Of a stretch of 64,000 nt of DNA, positions 2,411-61,900 are shown piece after piece (positions within the stretch are counted from its first letter, which is position 1; the number at the start of each line of letters is the position of its first letter). The DNA is from an uncultured Candidatus Bathyarchaeia archaeon. Lineage in GTDB: Archaea; Thermoproteota; Bathyarchaeia; RBG-16-48-13; CAYWPD01. The notes beneath the pieces are model-generated. The model was given only the letters and a program-made list of their open reading frames with translations, was not told the DNA's origin and did not search any database. Location: assembly GCA_964460055.1 (NCBI GenBank), contig CAYWPD010000001.1, positions 1,376-65,375 of the forward strand. Reading direction: 5' to 3'. Made by a program: the position numbers and the translations under genes.

Positions 2411-2440
2411 GTGATTTACGGGCCATTGTGAATCAGGGAT

Positions 2441-37812: not shown

Positions 37813-38107
37813 AAAAGTCACCAATGGCTGCGCGCGTGTATAATGTCTATATCTTGACAGCCAATGTCTCTACCGCGAAGAGCGCTTCTGGCGTTTCCTT
37901 AGGAACCGTTCTTTCGGCAGTCTCGGTCTCCTAGGTCTTTGGGCATCTGCTACTGCCATCGTCTCACCGGTCTAGCCTTTACTCCAGAGAGATATGAAAG
38001 TTGATTCTTTTCGAGAAAAAGCAGGGCTTTCTATAAATCAATGGAACTAGTTGGCGTGTTTCACCTATCGTCTCGTCAAGTATCGATTTTTTCTTGTTGG
38101 ATGCTGG

Positions 38108-39271: not shown

Positions 39272-39385
39272 TCTTGACTCACCCTTGTATCGAAGATCTT
39301 TGGTGCCTCTGGTATCATGCCTTCTTGGAGAAAAGATCTTGCCTGACTAGTGGGCCGAGGGCGATTGGATTCGAGATGGGCTTCC

Positions 39386-40336: not shown

Positions 40337-40424
40337 GGCTACTTCACTTCGTATCTGAATGGCATAGAGGTCTCTGCGAGTTCAAAATGATTTCCAATTT
40401 GACGCCAGTTCGTCTCGAATATGC

Positions 40425-41672: not shown

Positions 41673-41752
41673 TCTCTTCGCCTGATAATATGCTTGGGAG
41701 AGATGTTATCAGCGTCGGTCGCTTGATACATGTCGCAGCCAAGTGATCTGAT

Positions 41753-43273: not shown

Positions 43274-44293
43274 CTACCGATTCCTGTCTATGGCTATTTC
43301 GGCCATATTTGCGCCGTAATCTGATATCCTCTCGATGCTATCAGTTATGATCCGGAGGTTAACCGACCCTTCGCCCTGTCTCTTAATGAGCTTCTCATTC
43401 AGCTGCGCAATCCTCGCCTCCGTTGCTTTTCTGGTCGCTATGGCCTTGTTTGCGAGCTGAACATCTTTGGCTAAGAAGGCTCTCATGGCGTCGCTGTTCA
43501 TTCTGTTCGCCTCGCGTCCTACTTGGACGATGGCCGAAAGTGTCTCCTCTTCGACCACCTCCAGATCGGTTTCAAGGATCGTCTTGCCAATCCTGAAGGC
43601 GTGGTCAGCTATCCTCTCGATAGATTTTGCGAGCATCTGGTAGTCCATCGTCTCCACAGCCTTGATGCCGAGGTTTCCCAGCATGGTCGGATTCTGAAGT
43701 GCCAAGGCGAGCTGTCTTAGTATGAGGAAGTATAGCCTGTCGACGCTTGGCTCTCTATCAATCACGTCTTCTGCCATTCTGCGGTTCTTTGTCTCAAGCG
43801 CGTTGAGGGCTGTCTCATACATTGATGAGGCTACGAGGTGGGCTCTTCTTATCGCCTTTTCGACTGTGAGTTCCTCTGGTGAGAGTAGGTCTTGGACCTC
43901 GATCGTTTTGTCTGTCTCCTCTATTACCTCGAGGCCTAAGAGGCTCGCCGCTTGGCTTGTTATTGCGCGTCTAAGCTCCATCGGTATTGATTGAGATGAT
44001 CCGAATCTGAAGATTTGGTGGCCTGCTAGATACTTGGATATAAAGATCCGTCTGAGAGACTCAGGATCCGAGTGGGCTTCTATCTTGATCTCTGCTATCT
44101 TAGGCTCGGGCTCATGCTGTGTTCCTGCCCTTATTTGGAGTGATCCGTCTGGTTGCTCTGTGACTGACAGTCTGTCGCCTGGCGTGAGTCCAAGACGTTT
44201 GCACCAGTTCTTCGGTAGTGTGATGACGAAGGATGAGGAGCCTGTGAACTGGATCTTTCTGCTCTCTGTCGCCCAGTCCTTGTCTGTGCCCAA
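43274..44293 (-). CDS. phosphate uptake regulator, PhoU-like with N-terminal AbrB/SpoVT DNA-binding domain
   Basis: The N-terminus has a swapped-hairpin pattern (KIQFTGSSSFVITLPKNWCKRLGLTPGDRLSV). The C-terminus has two PhoU repeats (E..D...D...KAIERIADHA and SIERISDYGANMAE). It is divergent from pstS. Confidence 0.75.
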   Translation of the reverse strand: MGTDKDWATESRKIQFTGSSSFVITLPKNWCKRLGLTPGDRLSVTEQPDGSLQIRAGTQHEPEPKIAEIKIEAHSDPESLRRIFISKYLAGHQIFRFGSSQSIPMELRRAITSQAASLLGLEVIEETDKTIEVQDLLSPEELTVEKAIRRAHLVASSMYETALNALETKNRRMAEDVIDREPSVDRLYFLILRQLALALQNPTMLGNLGIKAVETMDYQMLAKSIERIADHAFRIGKTILETDLEVVEEETLSAIVQVGREANRMNSDAMRAFLAKDVQLANKAIATRKATEARIAQLNEKLIKRQGEGSVNLRIITDSIERISDYGANMAEIAIDRNR

Positions 44294-44327
44294 ATGGCCG
44301 ATACCAAGTCTCTAGGAAGCGTTACAT

Positions 44328-44339
44328 ATCTATATAGAT
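44328..44339. promoter_or_regulatory. perfect 12-bp palindrome ATCTATATAGAT (TATA-like) in the divergent phoU-like regulator / pstS intergenic region
   Basis: The palindrome was read directly from the sequence. It lies 35 bp upstream of the regulator start (minus strand) and about 75 bp upstream of the chosen pstS start. Confidence 0.3.
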
Positions 44340-44414
44340 GTCGGACGGATGGATGGACTATGTCGAGAATCCTTTTATGATGTGGCGCACGTCTGTCCGC
44401 CTCGAGGAAGAATA

Positions 44415-45386
44415 ATGACGAGCAAGACACAATTGGTTGCAGTTGCGCTGGCCGCTCTCGTTATTGGCGCCGGTCTCGGATACGTCGTTGCGCTCTCATC
44501 GGGTGCAGGGGGAGAAGAGACCTCGAGAGCCCGTATAGCAGCTCTCGAAACGCAGGTTGCTGCGCTTCAGCAACAACTGCAGGAGGCGCAGAGGGCGGCA
44601 AGCGGTACACTTCAGGATAACTCCGTTGTTGTGCAGGGATCTGATACGATGCTGATACTTGCACAGCGATGGGCTGAGGAGTACAGGAAGACGCAACCGG
44701 AACTGAACATACAGGTTACCGGTGGAGGTTCGGGCACAGGTATCGCGGCCCTCATAGATGGACGCGTGGACATAGCAGACGCATCGAGGCCCATGAAACA
44801 GAGCGAAATAGATGCCATGGTTGCAAAAGGGAAGACGCCTGTGGCGTTTTCCGTGGCTCTGGACGGCGTCTCGATAATCGTCCACCCCAGCAATCCTGTC
44901 AGAGAGCTCACCTTACAACAGCTCGCGGCTATCTACGTCGGGAACTACACGAATTGGAACCAAGTTGGCGGCCCTGATCTAGGGATAACCGTCTATGGCA
45001 GACAGTCCACATCTGGTACCTACGCCTTCTTCAAGGAACACGTGATGAGCAACAAAGATTACAGAGCGGATATGCAATCGCTGGCAGGCAACTCGGACCT
45101 GGTGCAGGCGGTCTCTCAGGACCCCAGTGGCATAGCCTACGTGGGCGTAGCCTACGCTGAAAGGAGAACTGACGTGATCATCTTGGGAATCAAGAGGGAC
45201 GCCTCGTCACCAGCCGTAAGACCGACGGTGGCAACGATAAAGAGCGGAGACTATGGCATCTCAAGGCCCCTGTTCGTTATCACGAGCGGCTATCCACAAG
45301 GCAAGTTGGCAGCCTACATAGCTTGGATCCTTAGCCCCGAAGGACAGAAGGTCGCAGCTGACGAGGGCTACGTCGCCATCATCTAG
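44415..45386 (+). CDS. pstS: phosphate ABC transporter substrate-binding protein PstS
   Basis: An N-terminal membrane anchor is followed by GSDTM, GGGSGTG and other PstS motifs. The start is chosen at MTSKTQL (44415) rather than the track start at 44349. Confidence 0.8.
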   Translation: MTSKTQLVAVALAALVIGAGLGYVVALSSGAGGEETSRARIAALETQVAALQQQLQEAQRAASGTLQDNSVVVQGSDTMLILAQRWAEEYRKTQPELNIQVTGGGSGTGIAALIDGRVDIADASRPMKQSEIDAMVAKGKTPVAFSVALDGVSIIVHPSNPVRELTLQQLAAIYVGNYTNWNQVGGPDLGITVYGRQSTSGTYAFFKEHVMSNKDYRADMQSLAGNSDLVQAVSQDPSGIAYVGVAYAERRTDVIILGIKRDASSPAVRPTVATIKSGDYGISRPLFVITSGYPQGKLAAYIAWILSPEGQKVAADEGYVAII

Positions 45387-45400
45387 AAGACGACTGTCCG

Positions 45401-46309
45401 ATGAGGCTCAAGAAACCACCTGCTCCAAGAACTTCGCTCAGCAGGACTCTCGTTGAGCGGCTTGCCAAGAGCCTCTTCTTTCTCTGCTCAGTGATAGTAA
45501 TACTCGTTACACTGCTCATCACGCTATTCCTCTTCAGGGAAGGGCTGCCAGCGCTCCTGCACGTCCCCATCTGGGACATATTCGCCGGTACCATTTGGCA
45601 GCCACCAGCTGAGGTCCCTAAATTCGGCGTATTACCGCTCATGGTGGGCTCAGCCGTTATCACGTTCACATCCCTCATGTTCGCGACCCCTCTGGGACTA
45701 GCGGTCGCCCTCTACCTAGCTGAGTTCAGTCGTTCACTTGAGCGAGAGGTTCTGAAGCCCCTTGTAGAATTGCTGGCAGCCGTTCCCTCGGTGGTATTCG
45801 GATTCTTCGCTCTCGTCGTCGTCAGCGGATGGATACACGGACTGTTCGGGGTGGGAACAAGGCTGAACGCTTTGAACGGAGCCGTCGTCCTTTCGTTGAT
45901 GGTGTTGCCGACAATAGCAAGCATTTCGGAGGATGCGCTGAATTCAGTGCCGAGGGATCTCAAGGAGGCTGCCTATGCCTTGGGGTCGACTAGGCTGCAG
46001 GTCCTTCGTGGAGTTGTGCTGCCCTATGCACGGAGGGGTATCGCCGTGGCAGTCCTCTTGGGATTCGGCCGCGCAATAGGTGAGACTATGGCCGTCCTCA
46101 TGGCGACGGGGAATGCTGCCGTGATAAGTCTCAGCCTTCTTACTTCGATGGAGACGATGACCGCGGCCATCGCGATCGAAATGGGTGAAGTGGTCTTCGG
46201 TTCCTTGCACTACCAGATGCTCTTCTTCTTGGGCATACTCCTCTTCCTGATCTCGAGCGCGGTGAACATATTGGCTGACCACATAATCACGAGAGGTAGG
46301 GTGGCATGA
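45401..46309 (+). CDS. pstC: phosphate ABC transporter permease PstC
   Basis: Six TM helices and an EAA-like loop (EAAYALGSTRLQVLRGVVLP) are present. It is followed by pstA with a 4-bp overlap. Confidence 0.85.
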   Translation: MRLKKPPAPRTSLSRTLVERLAKSLFFLCSVIVILVTLLITLFLFREGLPALLHVPIWDIFAGTIWQPPAEVPKFGVLPLMVGSAVITFTSLMFATPLGLAVALYLAEFSRSLEREVLKPLVELLAAVPSVVFGFFALVVVSGWIHGLFGVGTRLNALNGAVVLSLMVLPTIASISEDALNSVPRDLKEAAYALGSTRLQVLRGVVLPYARRGIAVAVLLGFGRAIGETMAVLMATGNAAVISLSLLTSMETMTAAIAIEMGEVVFGSLHYQMLFFLGILLFLISSAVNILADHIITRGRVA

Positions 46310-47157
46310 AGGAGCGGCTTCGAGAGTCCTTGGTGGTCCTCGGCCTGAGGTCCGCGGTCTTCGTGGCACTGGCTGGTCTTTTGGGAGTTCTCTTCGATAT
46401 TGTATCAAAGGGCGCCGGAGTTCTCAGTTGGAAGTTCTTGACGGAGCCGCCGATGGCGGGCATGACCGAGGGAGGCATCTTCCCGGCTATTATCGGCTCG
46501 GTCTACTTGGTTACGCTATCACTTGTGGCGTCTGTGCCTATTGGAGTTCTCTCGGCCATATATCTTGCGGAATACACGAAGCAGAGTCGCTTCACGCGAA
46601 TTGTGGACGTCTCGATCAGGAATCTTGCGGGAACACCTTCTATAGTCTTCGGTCTTTTCGGCCTCGGCCTCTTTGTCAACTTCCTCGGATTCAGGCAGTC
46701 TCTTCTGTCTGGAGCTCTGACTTTGGCTTGTATGTCTTTGCCAGTAATAATCACGGCTAGCCGGGAGGCATTGTTGACTGTACCCAACGAGTTCAGGGAA
46801 GCCGCCTACGCTCTTGGAGCGACGAAGCTTCAAGTGGTTCGGAGGGTGGTCGTGCCGAACGCGCTGGCGGGCATATTAACTGGGATTGTCCTCTCTTCGT
46901 CTAGGGTGATCGGAGAGACTGCGCCCATAATGCTGACTGCTGCAGCGTTCTACACTCCATCGCTCCCTTCGTCGTTCTTTGACAGAGTCATGGCGCTGCC
47001 TTTCCATCTATTTGTGATGGCTACCCAGTCTGCTAATCCATTGAAGACCGCGCCGATCCAGTACGGCACGGCCCTCGTGTTGATTCTTATTGCAGTTGGC
47101 TTGAACGCAACTGCCTTGTTTGTAAGGGCTAGGCGCAGGAGGATCAAAGCATGGTGA
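46306..47157 (+). CDS. pstA: phosphate ABC transporter permease PstA
   Basis: An EAA loop, [20 protein letters not shown], is present. It overlaps pstC by 4 bp and pstB by 7 bp. Confidence 0.85.
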
Positions 47158-47912
47158 TGTTCCCGAAGATCGAGGTGAAGGAACTCAGGGTCAGCTATGG
47201 AGAGAAGCTGGTGCTCAAGGGGATAACACTCACAATCCCTCGAAACGAGATCACGGCAATCATTGGCCCCTCAGGCTGCGGTAAGTCCACGTTGATCAAG
47301 GCGTTGAATAGGATGGTGGAGCTTGTCCCAGAAGCGAAGGTCGGTGGGCAGGTGTTTCTTGACGGTGAGGACATCTATGCGCCGGATGTCGATGCTGTCA
47401 CGATTCGCAGGAGGATAGGCATGGTGTTTCAGAAACCCAACCCCTTCCCCTCATCGATCTATCACAACGTAGCGTTCGGGCCGAGGATTCTTGGCGTGAA
47501 TGATCGTGCGAAGCTGGATGACGTTGTCCAAGAGAGTCTTGTTAGAGCCAACTTATGGGATGAGACGAAAGACAGGCTGAGGGAGAACGCCTTATCACTT
47601 TCGGGTGGGCAGCAGCAGAGGCTCTGTATAGCCCGGGCTTTGGCGACGAATCCGGAAGTCTTGCTTCTGGACGAACCGGCGTCAGCGCTGGATCCGATCT
47701 CGACGGCGAAGGTGGAGGATCTCCTCAGGGATCTCAAGAGGGAGGTCACAATAGTCCTAGTGACACATAATATGCAGCAGGCGATAAGAGTCTCGGATAG
47801 GACTGGTTTCATGTTGCTTGGAGAGCTTGTGGAGTTCAAACCTACATCGGAGCTCTTCGATCATCCCAGCGACAGTAGGACGGAGGCCTACATTACTGGG
47901 AAGTTCGGCTAG
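47151..47912 (+). CDS. pstB: phosphate ABC transporter ATP-binding protein PstB
   Basis: Walker A (GPSGCGKST), signature LSGGQQQRL and Walker [12 protein letters not shown] are present. It is 253 aa long. Confidence 0.9.
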
Positions 47913-47936
47913 GCGTCTCTGGGAGGATATGAATGT

Positions 47937-48638
47937 ATGAGTGCTGCGGATAGGCACTATGTGAAGGCGTTCGACGAAGAGTTGGAGAAGCTTAAGTCCT
48001 CAACGTACAGGATGGCTCAGATCGCGGATATGCAGCTGGCGAATGCTATGGAAGCTCTCAGGAGAATGGACCGTGAGCTGGCGGAGAATGTGATCGATGC
48101 GGACGATGGGGTCGATCATGTTGAGTACTCTGTTGAGAATCTGTGTGTGGAGCTTCTCGCTAGAATGCAGCCGCTCGCCGGTGACCTTCGGGTGATTACG
48201 ACTACGCTCAAAATCGTCACAGATTTGGATAGGATAAGCGACTACAGCGTCGACGTTGCCCTTAGGGTCAAGGAGCTGAAAACATCTTTCCCCGAGCCAG
48301 TATACAGCAGGCTGGTGGAGATGGCGTCTCTCTCGAGGGAGATGCTGAAGAGGGTTATGCAAGCCTATGTATCGCGCAAGCTCGACGGGCTGGGCGACGA
48401 GATCACTGGGAAGGAGGAGCATGTAGATGACATCTTCCATGAGTTCGTCTCTCAGCCATTGCTCGGATTTCCAGAAGGAAAGATCGACCATCTTCAGGTT
48501 GTGAGCGCGGTTCTCGTGTCGAAGTACTTAGAGAGGGTCGCCGACCACTGTGTGAACATAGCATCTAGGATATATTACGCAGTTGAGGGGAAGAGGATAA
48601 ACCTGAATATCAGAACCCCTGGAATCGTGAGAGCTTAG
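47937..48638 (+). CDS. phoU: phosphate transport system regulator PhoU
   Basis: Two PhoU repeats are present (DLDRISDYSVDVA and YLERVADHCVNIA). It is 233 aa long and sits directly after pstB. Confidence 0.85.
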   Translation: MSAADRHYVKAFDEELEKLKSSTYRMAQIADMQLANAMEALRRMDRELAENVIDADDGVDHVEYSVENLCVELLARMQPLAGDLRVITTTLKIVTDLDRISDYSVDVALRVKELKTSFPEPVYSRLVEMASLSREMLKRVMQAYVSRKLDGLGDEITGKEEHVDDIFHEFVSQPLLGFPEGKIDHLQVVSAVLVSKYLERVADHCVNIASRIYYAVEGKRINLNIRTPGIVRA

Positions 48639-52746: not shown

Positions 52747-53091
52747 CTAACAGGTAAGATGCAGTGCGGCAACAGCCTTCTTGGTCTTTGTGAGGCTGTT
52801 GAAGAGTTCAACGGCTTCTCTCGTGGGCTTGGCTACCAAATCGATACCAAGAGACTTCGCCCACTCCATTGTCTCCGATGAAACACGCATCAATCCGGAG
52901 TATCCTGTGCCCACGATGAGCGGCTCAGGCTTGTAGGGGACAACGTCTTCAAGGTCTGCAGGTTGTAGTCTGTGTCCCTCAGTCCTCCACCAGTTCTCTT
53001 TGATGTGATCCGGATAGATTATTAGGTCGCGGTGAAGTACTCTGCCATCCACAATGATTCTGCCGAACCGGTATTCCTCAATATGCACCAT
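52747..53091 (-). CDS. Mth938-like domain protein
   Basis: A 114-aa ORF with the pattern IEEYRFGRIIVDGRVLHRDLII...PEPLIVGTGYSG typical of Mth938/DUF498. Confidence 0.55.
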   Translation of the reverse strand: MVHIEEYRFGRIIVDGRVLHRDLIIYPDHIKENWWRTEGHRLQPADLEDVVPYKPEPLIVGTGYSGLMRVSSETMEWAKSLGIDLVAKPTREAVELFNSLTKTKKAVAALHLTC

Positions 53092-53118
53092 GAAAGATCG
53101 TCTCTGGATCCTACTGAT

Positions 53119-53403
53119 CTACCCTCCAGCTATGGCCGGTACGATGAGCACTTCGTCTTGCTCGCCGATCTTGGTCTCAAGGCCCTGAAGCTGGTTCATA
53201 TGTTTCTTGTTCACGAAGACATTTATGAACGGCTTGACCTTGCTATCGTCATCGAATACTAGCGAAGTGAACTGTTCTCCGAAGGTCGTCTTTAGCGTCT
53301 CAAGCGCTTCTCTAAGCGTCTTGGATGGAATTTGTAGCTCCTTGTCTCCCTTAGCGACGTCTGACACTCTGCCGAAGAGCCTTACCCTTGCCATCTTGCT
53401 CAT
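53119..53403 (-). CDS. MoaD/ThiS-family ubiquitin-like sulfur-carrier protein (SAMP-like)
   Basis: A 94-aa ORF ending in the diglycine ...VPAIAGG, with a beta-grasp-like pattern. It starts 4 bp after the upstream gene stop. Confidence 0.6.
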   Translation of the reverse strand: MSKMARVRLFGRVSDVAKGDKELQIPSKTLREALETLKTTFGEQFTSLVFDDDSKVKPFINVFVNKKHMNQLQGLETKIGEQDEVLIVPAIAGG

Positions 53404-53406
53404 TTC

Positions 53407-54336
53407 CTAAGTGAAGTGTTCCATGTAGTGAGGTGGTTCATGATGGGCCTCATCGATGAGTCTCGTGTCAAAGATCTCTTCTCGATCGAGGGTTCTCTTG
53501 ATATAACCCATCCGCTTGAGCACCGGGACAAACCTCATCGTTGAATCGATGTAGTACTGAGGCAGGCTAGCACAGTATCTTGGGGATGTGCTTAGCGCCT
53601 TCACGACGAAATCCCTGTCCACGACTCCCATCACTTTCACGACGATATCTGCAGCTCGGCCTACGTCTTTACGCATCAGGTTGGTTGCCTCTTCGTGGAG
53701 TTTGATGAACCCCATCACCTTCTCAGGCTGCTCTTTCAGCATGTCTTTCTTGACCACAATGCCGTAGCTGGGGTTGTATGGCCAGAGTCTTCTCGGCGGA
53801 ATTATATGCTTGGATCCGACCGCCCTTTCACAGAGCACAGCCAGCGGAGGAGTTCCTACGGTCGCTTCTATCTCTCCTGAGGCCATCGCCTCTGGTATGA
53901 AGTCGGCCCAATCATAGTTCTTGACGATCACCCTTTCTTCGAGGCCAATTTCTCTCAGGAGATTGCGGACTATTACATCGTGGATAGAGCCTCTCGGAGG
54001 CGAGCCTATGGCTGTGAACTGCTCAAGAGTCTCTCTTAAGCTGCCGCCGATCTCGTCTAGGGCTCGGAAGTGTGGCTTCGCCACGAAGATCGTGCCCTCA
54101 ATATGACCTCCTGCCACACAAATGATCTGAACTCCTCTTTCTATACCGATCATGGTCGGTGGAAGGCCGATGTAGCCCAGATCTAGTTCATCTCTTTCGA
54201 GGGAGTTGACTATAGGCGGCCCGCCGCCGAAGATCCTCCATTCGGGCTCCTCTCCCAATCTATTCTCCATCCACCTAAGGCCTCTGAGGATGAATGAGGT
54301 GTGATAGGCCGTCGTGAGTTGTCCTATCCTAAGCAT
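53407..54336 (-). CDS. NMT1/THI5-like (NitT/TauT SBP fold) protein, apparently cytoplasmic
   Basis: A 309-aa ORF with no N-terminal signal peptide or lipobox. It has SBP-like fold motifs (LGYIGLPPTMI... and GEIEATVG). Confidence 0.5.
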   Translation of the reverse strand: MLRIGQLTTAYHTSFILRGLRWMENRLGEEPEWRIFGGGPPIVNSLERDELDLGYIGLPPTMIGIERGVQIICVAGGHIEGTIFVAKPHFRALDEIGGSLRETLEQFTAIGSPPRGSIHDVIVRNLLREIGLEERVIVKNYDWADFIPEAMASGEIEATVGTPPLAVLCERAVGSKHIIPPRRLWPYNPSYGIVVKKDMLKEQPEKVMGFIKLHEEATNLMRKDVGRAADIVVKVMGVVDRDFVVKALSTSPRYCASLPQYYIDSTMRFVPVLKRMGYIKRTLDREEIFDTRLIDEAHHEPPHYMEHFT

Positions 54337-54417
54337 CTATATCCGCTCTCTCTGGACTGGTTCTGGGAACCGCTGCCTAAAACCTTCTCAGACCATAATT
54401 AAGGCATCTCCGCAGTC

Positions 54418-54984
54418 TCATGATTTGAAACTGGAAACCGCGCGAATGAACCTCTCCTTTATCCGCTGAGGCGACAGCTCGATTTCCGGGACGTCGGCAT
54501 TTCCCTTCTCCACTTTGACAACGATTACATGGGGGCCTTCGCTTCGCAGAGCTTCCTTCAATACCTTACTCAATGATTCTAAATCGCTGATCTGGCGTGT
54601 TGATCTAATCCCTGCTGCCTTTGCGATTTCCGCTAGGTCTGTCGCACCGGAGGTCGCGGTCTCCTGCCCTCCAGTGGTTCCATATGAGGCATTGTCTAGG
54701 ACCAACAGTACCAAGTTCTTTGGCGATGTGTAGGCAATTGTAGCAAGCGAGCCTAGATTCATGAGCAGTGAACCGTCTCCGTCTGCCACGATGACCTTCC
54801 TCCTTAGTGCGATGGAGAGCCCTAGCCCTATGGATGAGGCCAATCCCATGGAGCCCAGCATGTAGAAGTTGAGATCCCGATCTCCAACTGAGTATAATTC
54901 TCTACTGGGATACCCTAGATTGCAGACCAGAGGAAAACCGGCACAATATTCGACAAGCGCCTTTAGCGCATCGATTCTTTTCAT
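54418..54984 (-). CDS. sulfopyruvate/phosphonopyruvate decarboxylase beta subunit (ComE-like, TPP-binding)
   Basis: The TPP-binding motif GDGS...N (VIVADGDGSLLMNLG...LDNASYGTTGGQ) is present. It is 188 aa long and starts 7 bp after the ComD-like stop. Confidence 0.7.
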   Translation of the reverse strand: MKRIDALKALVEYCAGFPLVCNLGYPSRELYSVGDRDLNFYMLGSMGLASSIGLGLSIALRRKVIVADGDGSLLMNLGSLATIAYTSPKNLVLLVLDNASYGTTGGQETATSGATDLAEIAKAAGIRSTRQISDLESLSKVLKEALRSEGPHVIVVKVEKGNADVPEIELSPQRIKERFIRAVSSFKS

Positions 54985-54990
54985 CGTGCA

Positions 54991-55518
54991 TCAGCGGCCG
55001 AATAGATCCATGCCCAAGATGACGGCGACTGGTGTCCTTTCTTCTGTGGAGAATTTTTCGGCTTGAGAGATTGTGTTACGGATCTCTTTGGGTGTCTTGG
55101 GTTCAAACGCTCGCACGCCTATGCTGCTTAAGAGACCTTCGATTGCTCTGCCCATGATCAGTTGTGTGGGTATCTTCTCTCTTCGTCCTCCTCTCCGCGA
55201 CATGACTAGGAGCAATGGAACTTCGTAAGGAATAGCAAGCGATGCCAAAGCGGCTATTGAGTTGCCTAAGCCGGTATTTTGCATTAGGACTGCTGCTTTT
55301 TTTCCGCCGAGACATGCTCCGGTTGTTATGCCTATGGCTTCTTCTTCACGTGTGGCTGTGATGGAGGTTATCCGTTGGTCAGCCTGTATCATTTCGATGA
55401 TATCCTTCAAGAGCGCGTCGGGCACGAAGCTGAAAAAACTGTAGCCGGAAGACTTTAGCGCAAGATAGGTCGCTCTGCTTGTCTTTGTGAACTGAGTCTC
55501 GGAGTTCTCCTTAACCAT
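54991..55518 (-). CDS. sulfopyruvate/phosphonopyruvate decarboxylase alpha subunit (ComD-like, TPP PYR domain)
   Basis: A PYR-domain pattern, TREEEAIGITTGACLGGKKAAVLMQNTGLGN, is present. It is 175 aa long. Confidence 0.7.
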   Translation of the reverse strand: MVKENSETQFTKTSRATYLALKSSGYSFFSFVPDALLKDIIEMIQADQRITSITATREEEAIGITTGACLGGKKAAVLMQNTGLGNSIAALASLAIPYEVPLLLVMSRRGGRREKIPTQLIMGRAIEGLLSSIGVRAFEPKTPKEIRNTISQAEKFSTEERTPVAVILGMDLFGR

Positions 55519-56549: not shown

Positions 56550-56849
56550 TTGAAGTTCTTAGTTGTCGAGAAACCAAAACCGGGAGTCAAGGCGTCAGCC
56601 CTATCCAAACTGAGCCTGCTCCAGCCCGCATACTTCAAGAAACTCCAGAAAGAAGGGAAGATCGAGAGATACTATCATTTGATCGGATTGCAGGGGCTCA
56701 TTTACGTGTGCGATGTCTCCTCTGAGGAGGAGCTGTCGAAGATTGTGAGCCAAGACCCAATGTTCTTCCATTCTCGAAGAAGGGTCTATCCGTTGATTTC
56801 GCCGGAGACTCATGAGAAGATTGTCAGAGAGGTCTTCCCGACAAAATAG
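56550..56849 (+). CDS. muconolactone isomerase-like / small alpha+beta barrel protein, tentative
   Basis: A 99-aa ORF, MKFLVVEKPKPGVK..., whose size and pattern resemble MLI/Dabb-type ferredoxin-like proteins. Confidence 0.4.
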   Translation: MKFLVVEKPKPGVKASALSKLSLLQPAYFKKLQKEGKIERYYHLIGLQGLIYVCDVSSEEELSKIVSQDPMFFHSRRRVYPLISPETHEKIVREVFPTK

Positions 56850-56911
56850 TGGAGAGCACATGCACTGGATCTCGGTAGCTCCCACAGTATGTGAGACACG
56901 ATGAGAGCTAG

Positions 56912-57316
56912 TTGAGGCGGCGAATATTGGAAACTAGGTTCAACAGAAAGTCGGTGGATGATTGGGTCTCGATATGGAATTCCTATGATCTTTCGAGGGT
57001 TGACAGACTCTTTCTGAACGACCCGAGGGTAACCTACTTCTCGTCGGAAAGGCGGGGGCTGATAAAGGGGATAGACGCTCTCATCAAGCATCACGAGGGT
57101 TTCGGCTTCGTCAGGAGCGGTAAGATCCATCCGAACAAGCTGTGGCTTGAGGATGTTGACGTTGAAGACTTCGGCAAGACCGCTATTGTCACAGCGATAT
57201 GGTGCTTCAGGAGGGGAGACTCGGAGAGTGTCCAGCGTGGCCCAGTCACGCTGGTCTTTGTCCGTGTGGGAGACGAGTATCGTATAGCCCACGCCAACTT
57301 CTCCAGTTACCGCTGA
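56912..57316 (+). CDS. SnoaL/NTF2-like fold protein (DUF4440-like), tentative
   Basis: A 134-aa ORF with a pattern consistent with NTF2-like cone-shaped alpha+beta barrel proteins. Confidence 0.4.
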   Translation: MRRRILETRFNRKSVDDWVSIWNSYDLSRVDRLFLNDPRVTYFSSERRGLIKGIDALIKHHEGFGFVRSGKIHPNKLWLEDVDVEDFGKTAIVTAIWCFRRGDSESVQRGPVTLVFVRVGDEYRIAHANFSSYR

Positions 57317-57391
57317 TGTCGATCCCAGAAAGAGAAGCGGTGCGAACACTTCCTGTAGGAGCCTGCTGGGCTAGACAAAAAGGGAAATGGG

Positions 57392-58573
57392 CTAGTTGAA
57401 GGGGCTTCTAAACGTCTCTGTGATACTTATTCTCCGCTTCTTGAGTTCTGCGAAGAACTTCTTGGAGAGCTTCTCGTCGTAGCCGATCTTGACAGGATGT
57501 ATTACTCCTTGAGTATCCATCTCACCCTTGGCTATCATCTGGGCTACGATGCTGCATGGGAACGCTGTCGTACGCGCCATCGCGGAGATGTCGTTCTTGG
57601 GATCATAGAAGTCCATGAACTCCCAGATGTAGCCTGCCGCCTTTCCGCCTTTCACGCCTGAAACCTCGACCCTCTGACATACGGCGTCGCCCTCGCCGGG
57701 CCCGTATTGCAGAGTCTTCTCGCCAAGCGCGATGAAGAGGTCTAGAGGCTTGACATAGGCGTCCTTCACTCTGACTGTCTCCTCATCCAGCAGGTGCAGC
57801 TCCTTGAGCTTCTTCCAGATCTCACAGTGGCCAGGCCATCGGACGGTCTGGGCATAAGCGTCCTCCACACCCTTGAGCCCAAGGTGCTCAACGACATCGT
57901 TGAGGCCACCTGTGGTGAAAGCCTCGAGTCTGCCGAGAGGCTCTGGGAAAACTATCTCCCGCGCATCGCTCAATGCGGGGATCTCGACCATCTTGCCATT
58001 CTTGAGTACTCTGTTTACACCCAAGTTGGTCGCTACAGCCAGAGGCCAGTACCACGAGATCTTATAGCTGAGTGGGTTATAGTAGCCGGGGGTCCCCTTC
58101 TGAGGGAAACCTCCACAAGCAACGTAGAACCTCTCAGCCTTGTCAAGCTTCCGGGCTCCCACTCCGCAGAGAACCCTGTCGATGCCTATGTCGAGCCCGA
58201 TGTGAGGGACAACTGTGATTCCGGCCCTCTTTGCTGCCTTGTGATGGCTGAAGATCGTGGCGAAGGAGGCTGCGATATCGGCGTAGCCAACACCTGCTTC
58301 GATCGTTGCGGCAACAGCCAAGTCGCAGAATTGACGGGGGAGGGCGCTGGCTACCACGTCGAAGTCATCCTTGATTAGTTTGACCGTCGCGTTCTTGTGC
58401 GTGACGTCGGCTTTGGCAATGGTGATCTTGTCACCTCCGACTCTTGCGGCCACCGCTCTAGCTTGGTCGAGGTTCACGTCAGCCGCGACGATCTCGGTGA
58501 CTTTAGGCTGGGCGTTAAGATCCTTGAGTAGGCCGTAGCCCATCTTTCCTGTGCCGAGGACGAGCACTTTCAT
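57392..58573 (-). CDS. saccharopine dehydrogenase family NAD(P)-binding protein (paralog 2)
   Basis: An N-terminal motif, KVLVLGTGKMG, and a length of 393 aa fit this family, and the ORF is similar to 38108..39271. Confidence 0.75.
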   Translation of the reverse strand: MKVLVLGTGKMGYGLLKDLNAQPKVTEIVAADVNLDQARAVAARVGGDKITIAKADVTHKNATVKLIKDDFDVVASALPRQFCDLAVAATIEAGVGYADIAASFATIFSHHKAAKRAGITVVPHIGLDIGIDRVLCGVGARKLDKAERFYVACGGFPQKGTPGYYNPLSYKISWYWPLAVATNLGVNRVLKNGKMVEIPALSDAREIVFPEPLGRLEAFTTGGLNDVVEHLGLKGVEDAYAQTVRWPGHCEIWKKLKELHLLDEETVRVKDAYVKPLDLFIALGEKTLQYGPGEGDAVCQRVEVSGVKGGKAAGYIWEFMDFYDPKNDISAMARTTAFPCSIVAQMIAKGEMDTQGVIHPVKIGYDEKLSKKFFAELKKRRISITETFRSPFN

Positions 58574-58648
58574 CTTGATCCCATAAGAATCTCGTAGGCA
58601 TGGAAATTAAGCGTTAGTCGAGTGGCCCAATAGCCGAGTCGTCTGGCT

Positions 58649-60022
58649 CTAGGGACCTCTGGAGAGCGGTGATGTGGAGCAGTGTGGCCCGCCTAGTAAG
58701 TCGAGGTAGCTGTCGCTCCAGTTCTTCGTTCGAATACCTTTCTCTCTAAGCGCTTCCCGAGTCGCCACGTTTCTTGCGTAAGCTATCACTGTACCTGACT
58801 TTAGGGTAACCGTGTTTGTAGCGCCTCTTGCTTGCTCCATCAGCGCTAGCATGAGATGTCTCAGATCATTCTCTCTCTCGGGCGGTCCTCCAACGTAGAT
58901 CAGGCCATCCTTGTCGATCTTGTCCTCTTTGATCAGGAAGTCCACTAGGCTGATCTCTCGTCGAAGCAGGGTCGGCTGAATTTGCTTGTCTCTCACGTAA
59001 ACGTAACATTGGCCAGCCTTCTCAAACACGGCGGGGCCAACGATATCCTGCATTGGTCTCGCGTCGCGCTCCGATTGAACTCTTGTCGCTGCAAGCAGTT
59101 TCATAAGCAGTCTCTTTGGTGGCATCTCCTTGACGATCTCGCTCTCGAAGTAATAGGGCATGACGAGGGCTCTGCGCTCGGCTGGAAAGTTGATGGTGGT
59201 GTCGAGATGCATGTAGTCAACTGCAGGGTAGTCCGCGTTATGGACGGCGCAGACGTACTTGATCTTTTCATCTTGGTCGGCTGAGAAGATCTTCTTAGCG
59301 GTCTCGATGAAGCCGGTGTATGTTGTTCTTTGTCCGAGTCCAATTGCGATGGTTTCTTCGTCGACTATCTCTGTGTCTCCTCCCTCGATGTTGGCTGGCT
59401 CTGTGTTTGCTATCTCGACCTCGTTTGCATCCCAGATGGTGTTGATATTCTTCTGGAGGACGGGATCGGACTCGTACGCGAATTTCACTACTTTAGGTTC
59501 AAGTCTCCGGCTATATCTGCGCATGTTACAGATTGCAGTCCCGACTGGTGTGGTAAACGATGTGTCCCTCGGATACGGCCAGGTGGCTCTCTTGAAGTCG
59601 GGGAGTATAACCTCGTCTTCGGCAGGATCAAAGTATGGTGTATCAGGGTATCCGTCTGTAATGTGTTCGGCTTTGAGTTCGCTTGGCTTGGGCGCCTTCT
59701 GGCCAGGTCTCCAGAATCTTCGGATGATCTCTCTCTTCTCCGCTTCGGAAGCCGTCTCGATCACATTTCTGATGATTGAGAAGACCTCGAATACTTGGAC
59801 GCTCTCTTCTTTGAGGAATCTCTCCAGCTGCAACCACTGGTCATGACCTCCTGCATCGTAATCCGCGTGTGCGCATCTCGGCAGGTAATAGAGGCTAGAT
59901 TCGCTTCCGGCGAATGGAAGCCTGTTCTCCCAGAAGTTCAGCGTCGAGTCTTGTACAAGCACAGCATGAAGTGCTCCCCACTCAGAGTTCACAGTCCACA
60001 ATTCGAGACCCTGCCCGGCCAT
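58649..60022 (-). CDS. pentein-superfamily guanidino-group modifying enzyme (arginine deiminase / amidinotransferase-like)
   Basis: The C-terminal catalytic Cys motif, LLGGPHCST, is characteristic of ADI/agmatine-deiminase/amidinotransferase enzymes. It is 457 aa long. Confidence 0.62.
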   Translation of the reverse strand: MAGQGLELWTVNSEWGALHAVLVQDSTLNFWENRLPFAGSESSLYYLPRCAHADYDAGGHDQWLQLERFLKEESVQVFEVFSIIRNVIETASEAEKREIIRRFWRPGQKAPKPSELKAEHITDGYPDTPYFDPAEDEVILPDFKRATWPYPRDTSFTTPVGTAICNMRRYSRRLEPKVVKFAYESDPVLQKNINTIWDANEVEIANTEPANIEGGDTEIVDEETIAIGLGQRTTYTGFIETAKKIFSADQDEKIKYVCAVHNADYPAVDYMHLDTTINFPAERRALVMPYYFESEIVKEMPPKRLLMKLLAATRVQSERDARPMQDIVGPAVFEKAGQCYVYVRDKQIQPTLLRREISLVDFLIKEDKIDKDGLIYVGGPPERENDLRHLMLALMEQARGATNTVTLKSGTVIAYARNVATREALREKGIRTKNWSDSYLDLLGGPHCSTSPLSRGP

Positions 60023-60212
60023 CTTGTGGCATAGTTTAAAAGATGTGGTGTGGCGACGTACGTTGCTATTCGGCCATTTGGTGTGGAAGCATAGAGTAGT
60101 ATTTGATCAGAAGAACTCGGCGAAGTCTGGCTACAGGGTGGGAAGAGTGCGAAAGAGCTCTGGAATCAGGAGAAGTTGGATTGCGGCTGCGAGTTCAAGT
60201 GCGGCCGTTTAC

Positions 60213-60851
60213 ATGCCGATCGTTGCTGGCATCATCGAGCCGATGATATGGCCATTATTCTACGCTTCTCCCATCCTATACCGTCTGCTCTACTGGTGGT
60301 GGAGCCCGTTCGAGCAGTATCTTTTCCCACAGTGGTACTACCTCACAAGCTACATCAGTGACACGAGGTGGGCGAGTGTTGTTGCTCCGTTTGTGGTCGC
60401 GTTCGGACTCGTGATCTTCCTCGCAGGTCTGGGACAGACAGTCGGTGCGAAGGCACACAAGTCTGGTTTGGTCACTGGTGGACTCTATGGCTTTGTCAGG
60501 CATCCTCAACATCTTGGCATAGATATCCTGGCGCTTGGGCTTCTGATGCTGAACGCGTATGGTATTCGTGTCGGAGATCTCTATGCATGGACGTTGGTGG
60601 TCTTCATCTACATGCTTCAAGCTGATGGTGAGGAGGCTGCCTTGGAGAAGGAGTTTGGGGATGGCTATCTGGAATATAAGCGCGGGGTGTCCTTCATGAT
60701 TCCTCTCTTGCCTTCTTTCCACGGGCGGGTGCCTTCCATTCTTCCCAAGCGTTGGTCGAAGAGATTCCTGGCCTTTGTTGGAATCTATGCTGTTGTGCTG
60801 ACTGTCCTCACTTGGATAGTTTCATTTGTTCCGGTTTTCCACACCAGATAG
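60213..60851 (+). CDS. isoprenylcysteine carboxyl methyltransferase (ICMT/PEMT) family membrane protein
   Basis: The motif RHPQHLG...EE..L...FG..Y..Y...V is present in the C-terminal half, along with several TM helices. The start is moved to the internal Met at 60213, which leaves a roughly 190-bp divergent promoter region relative to the track start at 60024. Confidence 0.65.
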   Translation: MPIVAGIIEPMIWPLFYASPILYRLLYWWWSPFEQYLFPQWYYLTSYISDTRWASVVAPFVVAFGLVIFLAGLGQTVGAKAHKSGLVTGGLYGFVRHPQHLGIDILALGLLMLNAYGIRVGDLYAWTLVVFIYMLQADGEEAALEKEFGDGYLEYKRGVSFMIPLLPSFHGRVPSILPKRWSKRFLAFVGIYAVVLTVLTWIVSFVPVFHTR

Positions 60852-60937
60852 AAGTTGCCCAGCTAGGAAGCGATCTCCAATCTTCCGTCAAGGTCTTATG
60901 TCGATGCCGCCCCATAGATTGGTCAAAGTGATAGCAT

Positions 60938-61900
60938 TTGGTCGATATTCTCGTTCTGTCAAAGAGTGACGTCGAACGCACCCTGACGATGCGCGACACG
61001 ATAGTCGCGGTTGAGAAGGCCTTCAAGGCCTTAGCGGAAGGGCAGGCCTTGATGCCAAAGATTGTGCACCTAGACGTGCTGAAGCACGGCGGAGACTTTG
61101 ACGTGAAGGGCTCGCTTCTGGACGACGTCAATCTTGTTGGTTTCAAGGTCACGTCTGGCTACTTCGACAATCCGGCGAAGCTCGGTCTCCCAAGCATCAT
61201 GGGAGCGATCTATGTCGCAGACTCAAGAACAGGCCTCCCCATAGCGGTCATGGACGCTTCGCTGATAACGGCGGTCCGGACAGGCGCTGCAGGCGGAGTA
61301 GCCGCGAAGTATCTCGCGAGGAAGGATTCGGCGGTCATCGGCCTAATAGGGACTGGAGTCCAAGGACGTACGCAGGTACAGGCAGTCAGCGAACTATTCA
61401 GCCTGAAGCGGGTCAAGGCCTACGACCTCAGCAAGGAGAGCCGGGAGAAGTTCTCTGCCGAGATGTCCCAGAAGCTCGGGCTGAGAGTTGAGCCTGTGGA
61501 TACGGCAAGAGAGAGTGTAGTCGGTTCGGACATCGTCGCGACTGCGACCTATTCGAAGATGCCCGTCGTGTTGGATGAGTGGGTCGGTGAGGGAACGCAC
61601 ATAACATCCATCGGGGCAGATGTCAAGGGCAAGCAGGAGCTGGATACGAGGCTCTATCCAAGGGCGAAGATCGTCGTTGATAGGAGGGATGTTGCGCTCT
61701 CTAAGGGCCTCTTGAGAGAAGATCAGATACACGCCGAACTCGGGGAGGTCGTTGCAGGATTCAAGAGTGGACGGGAGAGCGATAGAGAGGTCACGATATT
61801 TGATGCTTCCGGTCTGGGAATTCAGGATTTGGCCGCGGCTAGCGTTGTGATAGAGAACGCGAAGAAGATGGGCCTTGGAACGGTTGTGCGATTCATATAG
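60938..61900 (+). CDS. ornithine cyclodeaminase / mu-crystallin family protein
   Basis: A Rossmann motif, GLIGTGVQGRTQ, and the OCD/mu-crystallin N-terminal substrate domain are present. It is 320 aa long. Confidence 0.8.
   Translation: MVDILVLSKSDVERTLTMRDTIVAVEKAFKALAEGQALMPKIVHLDVLKHGGDFDVKGSLLDDVNLVGFKVTSGYFDNPAKLGLPSIMGAIYVADSRTGLPIAVMDASLITAVRTGAAGGVAAKYLARKDSAVIGLIGTGVQGRTQVQAVSELFSLKRVKAYDLSKESREKFSAEMSQKLGLRVEPVDTARESVVGSDIVATATYSKMPVVLDEWVGEGTHITSIGADVKGKQELDTRLYPRAKIVVDRRDVALSKGLLREDQIHAELGEVVAGFKSGRESDREVTIFDASGLGIQDLAAASVVIENAKKMGLGTVVRFI

Follow-up and report, generated by a model that had tools for sequence, protein, structure and literature searches.

Which reaction could bring together, in one archaeal gene cluster, the two subunits of a thiamin pyrophosphate (TPP)-dependent decarboxylase, a protein with the fold of a transporter substrate-binding protein (SBP) and a ubiquitin-like sulfur carrier? 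The question is raised by a 64-kb stretch of DNA from an uncultured Candidatus Bathyarchaeia archaeon, termed the window throughout, within which the searches for partner genes were made. The original prediction had placed five open reading frames (ORFs) on its minus strand between positions 52747 and 55518, encoding ComD- and ComE-like subunits, an NMT1-like protein, a ThiS-like carrier and a DUF498/Mth938-like protein, and an ORF check together with hidden Markov model (HMM) scores located all five there (Table 1). The intergenic gaps along the array measured 6 nt (ComD-ComE), 81 nt, 3 nt (NMT1-ThiS) and 27 nt, a trivial correction of the 7 and 4 nt given before for the first and the third. 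Compared over many genomes and metagenomes, the conserved unit consists of ComDE, the cytoplasmic SsuA-fold (NMT1-like) protein and the ThiS-type carrier. We tentatively propose that it transfers sulfur from the carrier to sulfoacetaldehyde, the product predicted for ComDE. The NMT1-like/ThiS module, with or without ComDE, appears to be undescribed: no paper was found that links a cytoplasmic SsuA/NMT1-like protein, ThiS and ComDE, in a literature where "ThiS" is unsearchable as a word since it matches "this".

Conservation of the gene neighbourhood

Using the NMT1-like protein as query against 5.8 billion proteins, about 2,000 homologues were retrieved, and a relative is encoded in 470 GTDB species genomes. 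The best homologues (about 300-330 aa, 50-56% identical) came from Hydrothermarchaeales, ANME-2, Methanosarcinales, Thermoplasmata and Promethearchaeota. The genome closest to the window is a metagenome-assembled genome of Candidatus Bathyarchaeota PFL18 (L005), whose NMT1-like protein is 77% identical. For the comparison of neighbourhoods, 80 species-level genome loci were fetched and their ORFs called; the counts are stated over 81 loci with 145 immediate neighbours. The commonest Pfam families among these neighbours were ThiS (23), the TPP_enzyme domains of ComDE (10) and the Radical_SAM/Mob_synth_C domains of MoaA (9-11).

A ThiS/MoaD gene with a Gly-Gly end was found directly beside the NMT1-like gene in 23 of the 81 species loci and within 10 kb of it in 30. 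The adjacent pairs represent at least eight lineages and occur in both gene orders. They stem from the Asgard groups Hermod-, Prometh-, Atabey- and Jordarchaeia and from Bathyarchaeia, Nitrososphaerales, Methanococcoides, Methanolobus, Methanotrichaceae and an unclassified Methanobacteriota genome; in Methanobacteriaceae and Methanocellaceae ThiS lies within 10 kb. Order and orientation vary by lineage, with overlapping genes in Jordarchaeia (L068) and gaps of 0-13 nt in Bathyarchaeia. An E1 activating enzyme of the UbaA/MoeB type is encoded within 10 kb of the NMT1-like gene at 13 of the 81 loci, and a Methanocellaceae genome (L083) shows the order NMT1-E1-ThiS. The NMT1-ThiS pairing is kept in Bathyarchaeia relatives of 76-79% identity (L165, L166), where ThiS is the only neighbour that is kept.

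ComDE adjoins the NMT1-like gene in 10 of the 81 genome loci, eight of which also carry cysteate synthase. These loci include all four from Hydrothermarchaeota and three of the four from Bathyarchaeia, together with Atabeyarchaeia and Nitrososphaerales. Among 80 metagenome loci centred on ComE, eight have the NMT1-like gene adjacent to ComDE. In Hydrothermarchaeum profundi, cysteate synthase (TIGR03844, 495 bits), a fused ComDE and the NMT1-like protein are encoded in one operon with overlapping stop and start codons, and cysteate synthase holds this operon position in eight genome loci. In the closest genome, L005, ComDE's place is taken by a class-III aminotransferase (514-1959, +) located 30 nt upstream of NMT1-ThiS (1992-3209), with taurine:2-oxoglutarate aminotransferase 6JIX as its best PDB match (281 bits). 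A taurine-aminotransferase-like gene is a second, unrelated way of making sulfoacetaldehyde. The link between a ComDE-like pair, a cytoplasmic NMT1/SsuA-like protein and a Gly-Gly-ended carrier, first noticed in the window, is therefore one that is conserved across phyla.

For the array of five genes as a conserved unit the outcome was divided. The ComDE-NMT1-ThiS core recurs in several phyla, and its recurrence exceeds chance. The same is not true of the DUF498 gene, which was present in two relatives of 87% identity alone (L002, L085), even at E<=1, and missing from the other 160+ loci. Its membership of the DUF498/Mth938 family is clear, and it is a local passenger outside the conserved module. 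Both relatives keep the complete arrangement of the window. As DUF498 and the genes for a 3-hydroxyacyl-CoA dehydrogenase (3HCDH)-family protein, a LUD-domain protein and a metallo-beta-lactamase (MBL)-fold protein are confined to relatives of 87% identity, the five-gene array was rejected as a unit.

Since ThiS accompanies the NMT1-like gene more constantly than any other neighbour, and alone does so in the relatives of 76-79% identity, it can be asked whether the NMT1-like protein is a dedicated partner of ThiS or E1 with a substrate other than sulfoacetaldehyde, ComDE being its neighbour only in some lineages. It might load sulfur onto the carrier (by a persulfide on C73 or C255), hydrolyze carrier-product adducts in the manner of the Mec+ JAMM hydrolase of the CysO/CysM and MetO/MetM pathways, or thiolate another small molecule. 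We regard this as unlikely, albeit as a serious alternative. It agrees with the pair in Methanococcoides and Methanolobus, which follows a ThrC-like pyridoxal phosphate (PLP) enzyme near UbaA, TusA and sulfate-assimilation genes and resembles the MetM/MetO homocysteine route, with a PALP gene divergent from NMT1-ThiS in L165, and with invariant His, Glu and Asp residues that could make a hydrolytic metal site. It leaves unexplained why cysteate synthase-ComDE and taurine aminotransferase were recruited repeatedly and independently, and why the backbone positions for sulfonate binding described below were retained. Moreover, we know of no peptidase or sulfurtransferase with a periplasmic-binding-protein (PBP) fold, which also counts against it.

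The Methanococcoides sp. FTZ1 region (L003/L026:6899-10909) holds genes for TusA, a UbaA-type E1, the ThrC-like PLP enzyme, ThiS and the NMT1-like protein together. The PLP enzyme scores 297 bits with thrC and is no cysteate synthase. Beside the group lie CysN/CysD/CysH-like genes, another TusA, a PHO4 permease and a sulfite reductase. The region is a sulfur-assimilation island in which a MetM/MetO-type homocysteine synthase is probable. CysO-CysM-Mec and MetO-MetM perform thiocarboxylate-dependent synthesis of cysteine and homocysteine, respectively (Hasebe 2024, cited through the GapMind 2026 preprint). Common to these systems and the module are a ThiS-like carrier encoded with its client enzyme and, in Methanococcoides, the position of ThiS between the ThrC-like PLP enzyme and the NMT1-like gene. 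The differences are the SBP fold of the client, the lack of an adjacent PLP partner in the window and the JAMM hydrolase, which was not seen here.

Other neighbours are restricted to single groups. In Methanoperedens (L027, L038, L044, L045, L047, L059, L062, L082, L084) a convergent MoaA gene lies directly downstream of the NMT1-like gene. In three bacterial loci (L048, L050, L066) a heavy-metal P-type ATPase with HMA domains is followed by the NMT1-like gene, and a CGGC-domain protein precedes (shown for L066). Atabeyarchaeia L064 has an unannotated 871-aa gene near the NMT1-like gene, and in Bathyarchaeia L165 (9375-9848) CGGC, NikR_C, CDF and Mrp/ParA genes surround the NMT1-ThiS pair. These genes hint at a possible connection to metals.

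A cytoplasmic family distinct from substrate-binding proteins

Everywhere, members of the NMT1-like family are annotated as "ABC transporter substrate-binding protein", an annotation that is very probably wrong. The protein of the window had been described as lacking a signal peptide, and this holds. A leader peptide cannot be encoded, because an in-frame TAG codon sits immediately before the ATG, and all 89 family members begin no more than about 10 residues before the first beta-strand, compared to leaders of 30-75 aa with lipoboxes in exported relatives. Neither a signal peptide nor a lipobox was recognized, as judged from the upstream stop and the alignment and not from a dedicated signal-peptide predictor. 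For the 145 immediate neighbours, the 25 Pfam families with the highest counts included no permease or ATPase domain of ATP-binding cassette (ABC) transporters (BPD_transp_1, ABC_tran). The sole ABC systems of the window are a phosphate (Pst) transporter (44.3-47.9 kb) and an ABC-2 pair (62-64 kb). The protein scored 88.4 with the SsuA_fam model TIGR01728, below its cut-off of 163.5. With no leader peptide, no transporter neighbours and a score below the SsuA_fam cut-off, the interpretation as an SBP of an ABC transporter was rejected.

The family is compact (about 310 aa), leaderless and about 50% identical across phyla. At least 97% conservation among the 89 members was observed at 53 positions, including Y11, H12, C73, H78, E80, T82, S117, H119, D120, W143, D145, S190, Y191, H214 and Y254. 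The family HMM gave 395-534 bits for members (534 for the window protein) and 103-117 bits for the lipoprotein SBPs of methanogen contigs, whose genes adjoin comDE-MMP16 and whose leaders contain a GC lipobox. Invariant motifs specific to the family are GGHxEGT, GSIHD, NPSYG and SPxYC. In the exported relatives VNINGSD or ATHAEGS stands in place of GGHxEGT, GSIQD in place of GSIHD, and NHACCS or NPCCAL, with their CC motifs, in place of NPSYG; the invariant His, Glu and Cys residues of the family are missing from them. A representative search of 1.84 billion proteins showed the same picture of a compact family and exported relatives with other motifs. Among its best 150 matches, those above 300 bits (family level) were about 290-340 aa long, no fusion to ThiS or E1 was detected, and the lone multi-domain protein was a distant 759-aa match of the exported-SBP type. 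Judged by its sequences, the NMT1-like protein is a distinct cytoplasmic family with enzyme-like conservation.

In its AlphaFold2 model (predicted local distance difference test, pLDDT, 94) the protein most closely resembled 3UN6, a Staphylococcus SBP solved with Zn, together with TauA and SsuA (Foldseek top PDB matches, template modeling score 0.75-0.79). Thi5, ThiY and PqqT were next, and DszB and MqnA followed further down. TauA holds its sulfonate through the backbone amides of G61, G79 and T132 (PMC6906117). In the profile alignment these residues correspond to G39, G57 and S117 of the family, which are invariant or nearly so. The His and Glu residues of the family appear to fall where E106 and T132 of TauA contact the other end of the ligand, and the TauA alignment likewise suggests the geometry of a His/Glu/Cys cluster. 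SsuA, TauA and the lipoprotein SBPs beside comDE-MMP16 thus share with the family their fold, the best sequence and structure matches and the conserved backbone positions for sulfonate contact. The family differs from them by the absence of a leader or lipobox and of permease or ATPase neighbours, by its own motifs and by a much higher conservation.

The same fold would suit a non-catalytic cytoplasmic binder of sulfonates, acting as a sensor, as an allosteric regulator or as a buffer or chaperone for sulfoacetaldehyde, sulfite or coenzyme M (CoM). The original prediction had offered such an intracellular ligand-binding role as one of its two alternatives; we consider it improbable. The closest relatives are indeed sulfonate SBPs, no catalytic domain is recognizable, and cytoplasmic regulatory domains resembling SBPs are known, e.g. 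the C-terminal domains of CmpC/NrtC, which were among the fold matches. Nevertheless, it would be unusual for a binder to show about 50% identity between phyla and to have 53 positions that hardly vary, among them a His/Glu/Cys cluster absent from true SBPs. There would be no role for the tightly coupled ThiS gene, and no fused DNA-binding or signalling domain was found among the best 150 matches.

A thiamin theme had also been suspected. On such a reading, the TPP decarboxylase would receive thiamin moieties that a THI5/ThiY-like protein and ThiS produce or salvage. The names of the families (NMT1/THI5, ThiS, TPP enzyme) fit, and Thi5 and ThiY are among the fold matches. With the Pfam NMT1/THI5 model, however, the protein reached 19.6 against a gathering cut-off of 20.5, and sulfonate binders matched better than Thi5. 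Genes for ThiC, ThiD, ThiE, ThiG, ThiM or TenA were not among the commonest neighbour families. Cysteate synthase and a taurine aminotransferase in the neighbourhood are pointers to sulfonates. The thiamin theme was dropped on these grounds and can hardly be correct. Taking as reference the presumed active-site Lys/His and Cys-rich motif of THI5, an identity as hydroxymethylpyrimidine phosphate (HMP-P) synthase was rejected as well: the family has no invariant Lys, and it has NPSYG where the exported relatives have CC, hence no Cys motif like that of exported SBPs or THI5. What THI5 (HMP-P synthase), DszB (desulfinase) and MqnA do provide is a precedent for PBP folds turned into cytoplasmic enzymes, albeit at only 12-16% identity to the window protein.

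The ThiS-type carrier

The carrier scored above the Pfam ThiS cut-off of 22.5 (Table 1) and ends in AGG directly before the stop codon, which gives it both the beta-grasp domain and the Gly-Gly terminus of a sulfur carrier. It remained below the equivalog cut-offs for SAMP1 (54.1 versus 60), moaD_arch (48.7 versus 49.5) and moaD (25.2 versus 66). MoaE was not seen among the annotated genes of the window, an annotation that is not exhaustive, or among the neighbour families.

The carrier falls narrowly short of the cut-offs for archaeal MoaD and SAMP1, which raises the possibility that the Gly-Gly protein is the MoaD of this genome and that binding of a pterin, oxyanion or metal by the PBP-fold protein serves the metabolism of the Mo/W cofactor (MoCo) or another metal cofactor. 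MoaA is convergent in 9-11 Methanoperedens species, heavy-metal ATPase, CGGC and NikR_C neighbours occur in a few bacteria, in Atabeyarchaeia and in L165, the best PDB match was solved with Zn, and relatives of the fold bind pyrroloquinoline quinone (PQQ), hydroxymethylpyrimidine (HMP) and thiamin. Nevertheless, MoaA adjacency (radical SAM plus Mob_synth_C) is limited to this one genus, where no other MoCo genes were seen nearby. MoaE, MoaC, MoeA and MogA were lacking among the neighbours and in the annotated parts of the window, and the operons of cysteate synthase and ComDE would go unexplained. In Methanobacterium the genes between ThiS and NMT1 encode an aminotransferase, a THUMP protein and others, none of them for MoCo. 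A MoCo cluster was rejected on the basis of the Methanoperedens and Methanobacterium loci, and a cofactor role of this kind is very improbable.

Carrier thiocarboxylates add sulfur to carbonyl or activated carbons in ThiS-ThiG (thiazole synthase), the 2-thiosugar BexX system and MoaD-MoaE. With these systems the module shares a Gly-Gly-ended beta-grasp carrier encoded beside its acceptor enzyme and, in our proposal, a carbonyl carbon as the acceptor of sulfur. It differs from them in the SBP fold of the partner, where they employ a TIM barrel or a MoaE fold, in having no invariant lysine for imine chemistry and in the sulfonate nature of the proposed substrate.

ComDE falls on the sulfopyruvate side of the tree

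Both subunits passed the curated equivalog cut-offs of their families with a small margin, ComD with 150.8 versus 147.95 (TIGR03845) and ComE with 231.8 versus 221.5 (TIGR03846); ComE additionally matched TPP_enzyme_C (79.7). The ComD-like protein aligns over its full length with the N-terminal halves of fused ComDE proteins that adjoin cysteate synthase, and the GDGS...N motif for TPP was found in the ComE-like protein. The phosphonopyruvate decarboxylase model TIGR03297 (cut-off 312.5) gave 97 bits for ComD and 158.5 bits for ComE.

A phylogeny of the ComDE-like pair had been called for by the original prediction. A metagenome scan with a ComE profile yielded the 80 loci mentioned above, each of which was marked by diagnostic neighbours (phosphoenolpyruvate (PEP) mutase, ComC, cysteate synthase, MMP16, the cytoplasmic NMT1 family, ThiS), and a neighbour-joining (NJ) tree of 85 ComE domains was calculated without support values. 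Four groups became visible. The first is a clade of fused ComDE in the context of cysteate synthase and/or NMT1 (with or without ThiS), never of MMP16. The second is a split clade adjoining PEP mutase, i.e. phosphonopyruvate decarboxylases. The third, also split, adjoins L-sulfolactate dehydrogenase, and the fourth, split as well, adjoins MMP16 (TIGR03287, 521 bits), often together with cysteate synthase and a sulfonate ABC transporter. The ComE of the window pairs with that of Nitrososphaerales L065, also flanked by NMT1 and ThiS, and both are placed at the base of the methanogen clade with MMP16 context, away from the PEP-mutase clade. As one fused and one split ComDE clade adjoin the NMT1-like gene, two different ComDE lineages came to lie there.

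The pair is hence found on the sulfopyruvate side of the tree. Phosphonopyruvate decarboxylase was rejected as its identity, given the scores below the TIGR03297 cut-off, the absence of PEP mutase from the window and the separate clade formed by PEP-mutase-linked homologues. By family assignment, the split TPP enzyme is predicted to decarboxylate sulfopyruvate to sulfoacetaldehyde. The conserved ComDE-NMT1-ThiS link, the position in the tree and the low TIGR03297 scores together make a sulfur-transfer step tied to a sulfonate pathway, the other alternative of the original prediction, the best-supported interpretation.

MMP16 and the NMT1-like gene exclude each other beside ComDE

MMP16 occurs at 18 ComDE loci and the cytoplasmic NMT1-like family at 18 in total, and no locus had both. 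In the window, MMP16 gave no match by phmmer or tblastn with the 521-bit (TIGR03287) MMP16 query. According to recent work, MMP16 is the primary CoM synthase of Methanosarcina acetivorans, in whose MMP16 deletion mutant a sulfide-dependent backup pathway of unidentified nature exists (PMC12068725). MA3297-3299 are the cs-comDE-MMP16 genes, MMP16 being MA3299. MA3300, a "MoaD/ThiS family protein", is its neighbour by locus number, the only ground for this adjacency, and rose by log2 0.88 and 0.61 (q<=1e-4) in two comparisons of the MMP16-deletion study, where it was not discussed by the authors (PMC12068725, supplement file 5).

MMP16/ComF, the COG1900-type CoM synthase of methanogens (PMC12068725), acts or is proposed to act on sulfoacetaldehyde after ComDE, converts an aldehyde to a thiol and is encoded beside comDE, the position that the NMT1-like gene holds relative to ComDE. 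The two proteins are unrelated in fold: MMP16 combines COG1900 with a ferredoxin domain, and the NMT1-like protein has the SBP fold. Sulfide is presumed to be the direct sulfur source of MMP16, for which a dedicated ThiS carrier has not been described, and MMP16 is absent from the window and from all ComDE loci containing NMT1.

In methanogen-type contigs (L092, L096, L100, L128; e.g. L096:6467-9714), comD-comE and MMP16 are accompanied by a lipoprotein SsuA-like SBP and a TauC/SsuC-like permease, so that biosynthesis and probable uptake of CoM share one cluster. The exported SBP found there is a transporter-type cousin of the cytoplasmic NMT1-like family.

Proposed pathway

We tentatively put forward the following route. 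The split TPP enzyme would convert sulfopyruvate to sulfoacetaldehyde. The 309-aa protein, a former sulfonate-binding transport protein that would have lost its leader and its transporter, would hold the sulfonate end of sulfoacetaldehyde on the backbone amides of G39, G57 and S117. The aldehyde end would face the invariant cluster of H12, H78, E80, H119, D120 and C73, which may bind a metal. The Gly-Gly-ended carrier, adenylated and thiocarboxylated by an E1 encoded elsewhere, would hand its sulfur to the carbon of the aldehyde, in the way that ThiS supplies a carbonyl in ThiG. Reduction by two electrons, for which the flanking NAD(P) oxidoreductase is a possible source, would then yield 2-mercaptoethanesulfonate (CoM) or a closely related thiol-sulfonate. 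The NMT1-like/ThiS pair would do the job of MMP16/ComF of methanogens with unrelated proteins, on an MMP16-independent route. DUF498, LUD and MBL proteins would be local passengers, and taurine or cysteate may enter through the class-III aminotransferase. Sulfoacetaldehyde is the most economical choice of substrate, because it is the common product of ComDE and taurine aminotransferase. Substrate, sulfur donor, metal or catalytic cluster, reductant and product are all predicted here from genomic context and structure comparison. The nearest relatives in sequence and structure, i.e. TauA, SsuA and the lipoprotein SBP beside comDE-MMP16, are sulfonate binders, as the proposal would have it. The comparisons themselves establish the family assignments, the location in the cytoplasm, the pattern of conservation, the gene order and the mutual exclusion of MMP16 and NMT1-like contexts. 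In favour of the proposal we further count the coupling of the NMT1-like gene to ThiS and to enzymes forming sulfoacetaldehyde, its exclusion from ComDE loci with MMP16, the enzyme-like conservation, the lack of transporter neighbours and, in M. acetivorans, the backup route together with the rise of MA3300.

We are aware of several observations that weigh against this route. Its basis is wholly genomic and structural. The ComD and ComE cut-offs were exceeded only marginally, the branches of the NJ tree carry no support values, and shared phylogeny makes the locus counts non-independent. ComDE is missing within 8-10 kb of NMT1-ThiS in most Asgard loci and in the Bathyarchaeia relatives of 76-79% identity. 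In many methanogens that have MMP16, an NMT1-like gene occurs as well, at a distance from comDE, which implies a redundant or different role there. Other roles are hinted at by neighbours related to metals, namely P-type ATPase, CGGC and MoaA. An invariant lysine, as chemistry of the ThiG imine type would need, does not exist in the family, and a reductant is not consistently encoded nearby. The original prediction had asked for a genome search for PEP mutase, ComA/B/C, cysteate synthase and an E1. Within the 64-kb window none of these was found (E1 of the UbaA, MoeB or ThiF type), so that the source of sulfopyruvate and the activation of the carrier are unseen there. Finally, to our knowledge no use of CoM has been reported for non-methanogenic Bathyarchaeia, Hydrothermarchaeota or Nitrososphaerales.

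Flanking enzymes and surroundings of the cluster

Table 1. Location of the cluster genes and of further features in the window (scores are HMM scores)
Feature	Position	Strand	Family match or remark
ComD-like alpha subunit, split TPP-dependent sulfopyruvate-type decarboxylase, 175 aa	54991..55518	-	TIGR03845
ComE-like beta subunit, 188 aa	54418..54984	-	TIGR03846, Pfam TPP_enzyme_C; 6 nt after ComD
Cytoplasmic SsuA/TauA-fold (Pfam NMT1_2) protein, 309 aa	53407..54336	-	Pfam NMT1_2 58.7
ThiS/MoaD/SAMP1-like beta-grasp sulfur-carrier protein, Gly-Gly end, 94 aa	53119..53403	-	Pfam ThiS 45.6
DUF498/Mth938-like protein, 114 aa	52747..53091	-	Pfam PF04430 78.5 (gathering score 33)
Class-III (omega-type) aminotransferase, 445 aa	51237..52574	-	Pfam Aminotran_3 308.8
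3HCDH-family NAD(P) oxidoreductase, 300 aa	55558..56460	-	3HCDH_N 174.9, 3HCDH 82.9; 39 nt upstream of ComD
Arginine-deiminase-fold protein	58649-60022
Saccharopine-dehydrogenase-like paralogues, two	57392-58573 and 38108-39271
Ornithine cyclodeaminase/archaeal alanine dehydrogenase-like gene	60938-61900
URO-D family protein	41753-42916	+
Phosphate ABC transporter operon	43274-48638		PstS-like PBP, two permeases, ATPase, PhoU
Cysteine synthase	30148-31098	-	cysKM 356.5 (cut-off 344 bits)

Downstream of the array, on the same strand, genes for a class-III aminotransferase, a LUD-domain protein and an MBL-fold protein were identified. The aminotransferase differs from that of L005, and its assignment is weak because 6JIX ranks only 38th among its PDB matches; taurine aminotransferase was therefore not retained as its identity. 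The enzyme is a candidate for connecting the pathway with an amino-sulfonate such as taurine or cysteate. On the other side of the cluster, the 3HCDH-family gene is shared with no more than the close relatives L001, L002 and L085, and a Zn-dependent alcohol dehydrogenase occupies an analogous position in Nitrososphaerales L065. Its product is a candidate reductase or sulfolactate-type dehydrogenase whose membership of the module is uncertain.

The cluster is surrounded by an island of amino-acid, amide and guanidino-compound metabolism (36451-42916 and 56550-61900). Besides the genes in Table 1, this island also holds an amidase, an asparaginase_2 and an amidohydrolase_2, and on the opposite strand SnoaL-like and muconolactone-isomerase-like genes.

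Such surroundings might speak for a catabolic cluster, in which taurine, cysteate or sulfolactate from sediment organic matter would be converted to sulfoacetaldehyde by aminotransferase, dehydrogenase and ComDE. The PBP-fold protein would then cleave the C-S bond and release sulfite like the PBP-fold desulfinase DszB, for the supply of sulfur or carbon. ComDE participates in sulfolactate degradation in some bacteria, e.g. Roseovarius nubinhibens, DszB is among the fold matches, and class-III aminotransferases flank the module both in the window and in L005. This alternative is quite improbable, since the NMT1-like gene follows cysteate synthase in eight genome loci and several metagenome loci, and a release of sulfite would be futile because this enzyme consumes it. 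In addition, DszB was only the 43rd fold match with 12% identity, no Xsc, sulfite exporter or sulfite reductase was found in the window, and the link to ThiS would go unexplained.

Further features of the window were recorded. The window encodes a single PLP beta-replacement enzyme, the cysteine synthase, at a distance of 22 kb from the cluster; it is not a cysteate synthase. The URO-D family protein reached 41.6 bits with MtaA/CmuA methylcobamide:CoM methyltransferases (cut-off 235), too weak to call it a CoM methyltransferase; a CoM-using enzyme in this genome would bear on the question of CoM. Ahead of the Pst operon, on the other strand, a MazE/AbrB-type DNA-binding domain is fused to PhoU domains. 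Scans of the 64-kb window for tRNAs and Rfam families gave no matches.

Implications

The final step in making CoM is the pathway's least understood part, and MMP16 has only recently been confirmed genetically (PMC12068725). A conserved, ThiS-dependent module at the position of MMP16 would be a concrete and testable candidate for this chemistry. The most fitting class for it is sulfur insertion that depends on a carrier protein, here joined to the known sulfoacetaldehyde pathway. A further-reaching and rather doubtful version holds that the SBP-descended cytoplasmic enzyme and its dedicated ThiS carrier form a second, MMP16-independent CoM synthase, by which non-methanogens (Bathyarchaeia, Hydrothermarchaeota, several Asgard lineages and some Nitrososphaerales) would make CoM or a close thiol-sulfonate and which in methanogens would be the backup route to CoM seen there. 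If true, it would be the first SBP-fold enzyme to take sulfur from a ubiquitin-like carrier, CoM would have a role outside alkane and alkene metabolism, and abundant non-methanogenic sediment archaea, including Asgard lineages, would make a sulfonate thiol. The question bears on which low-molecular-weight thiols archaea use and on the evolution of sulfonate and CoM pathways before or outside methanogenesis. Whatever its product, the family would join the short list of binding-protein folds turned enzymes.

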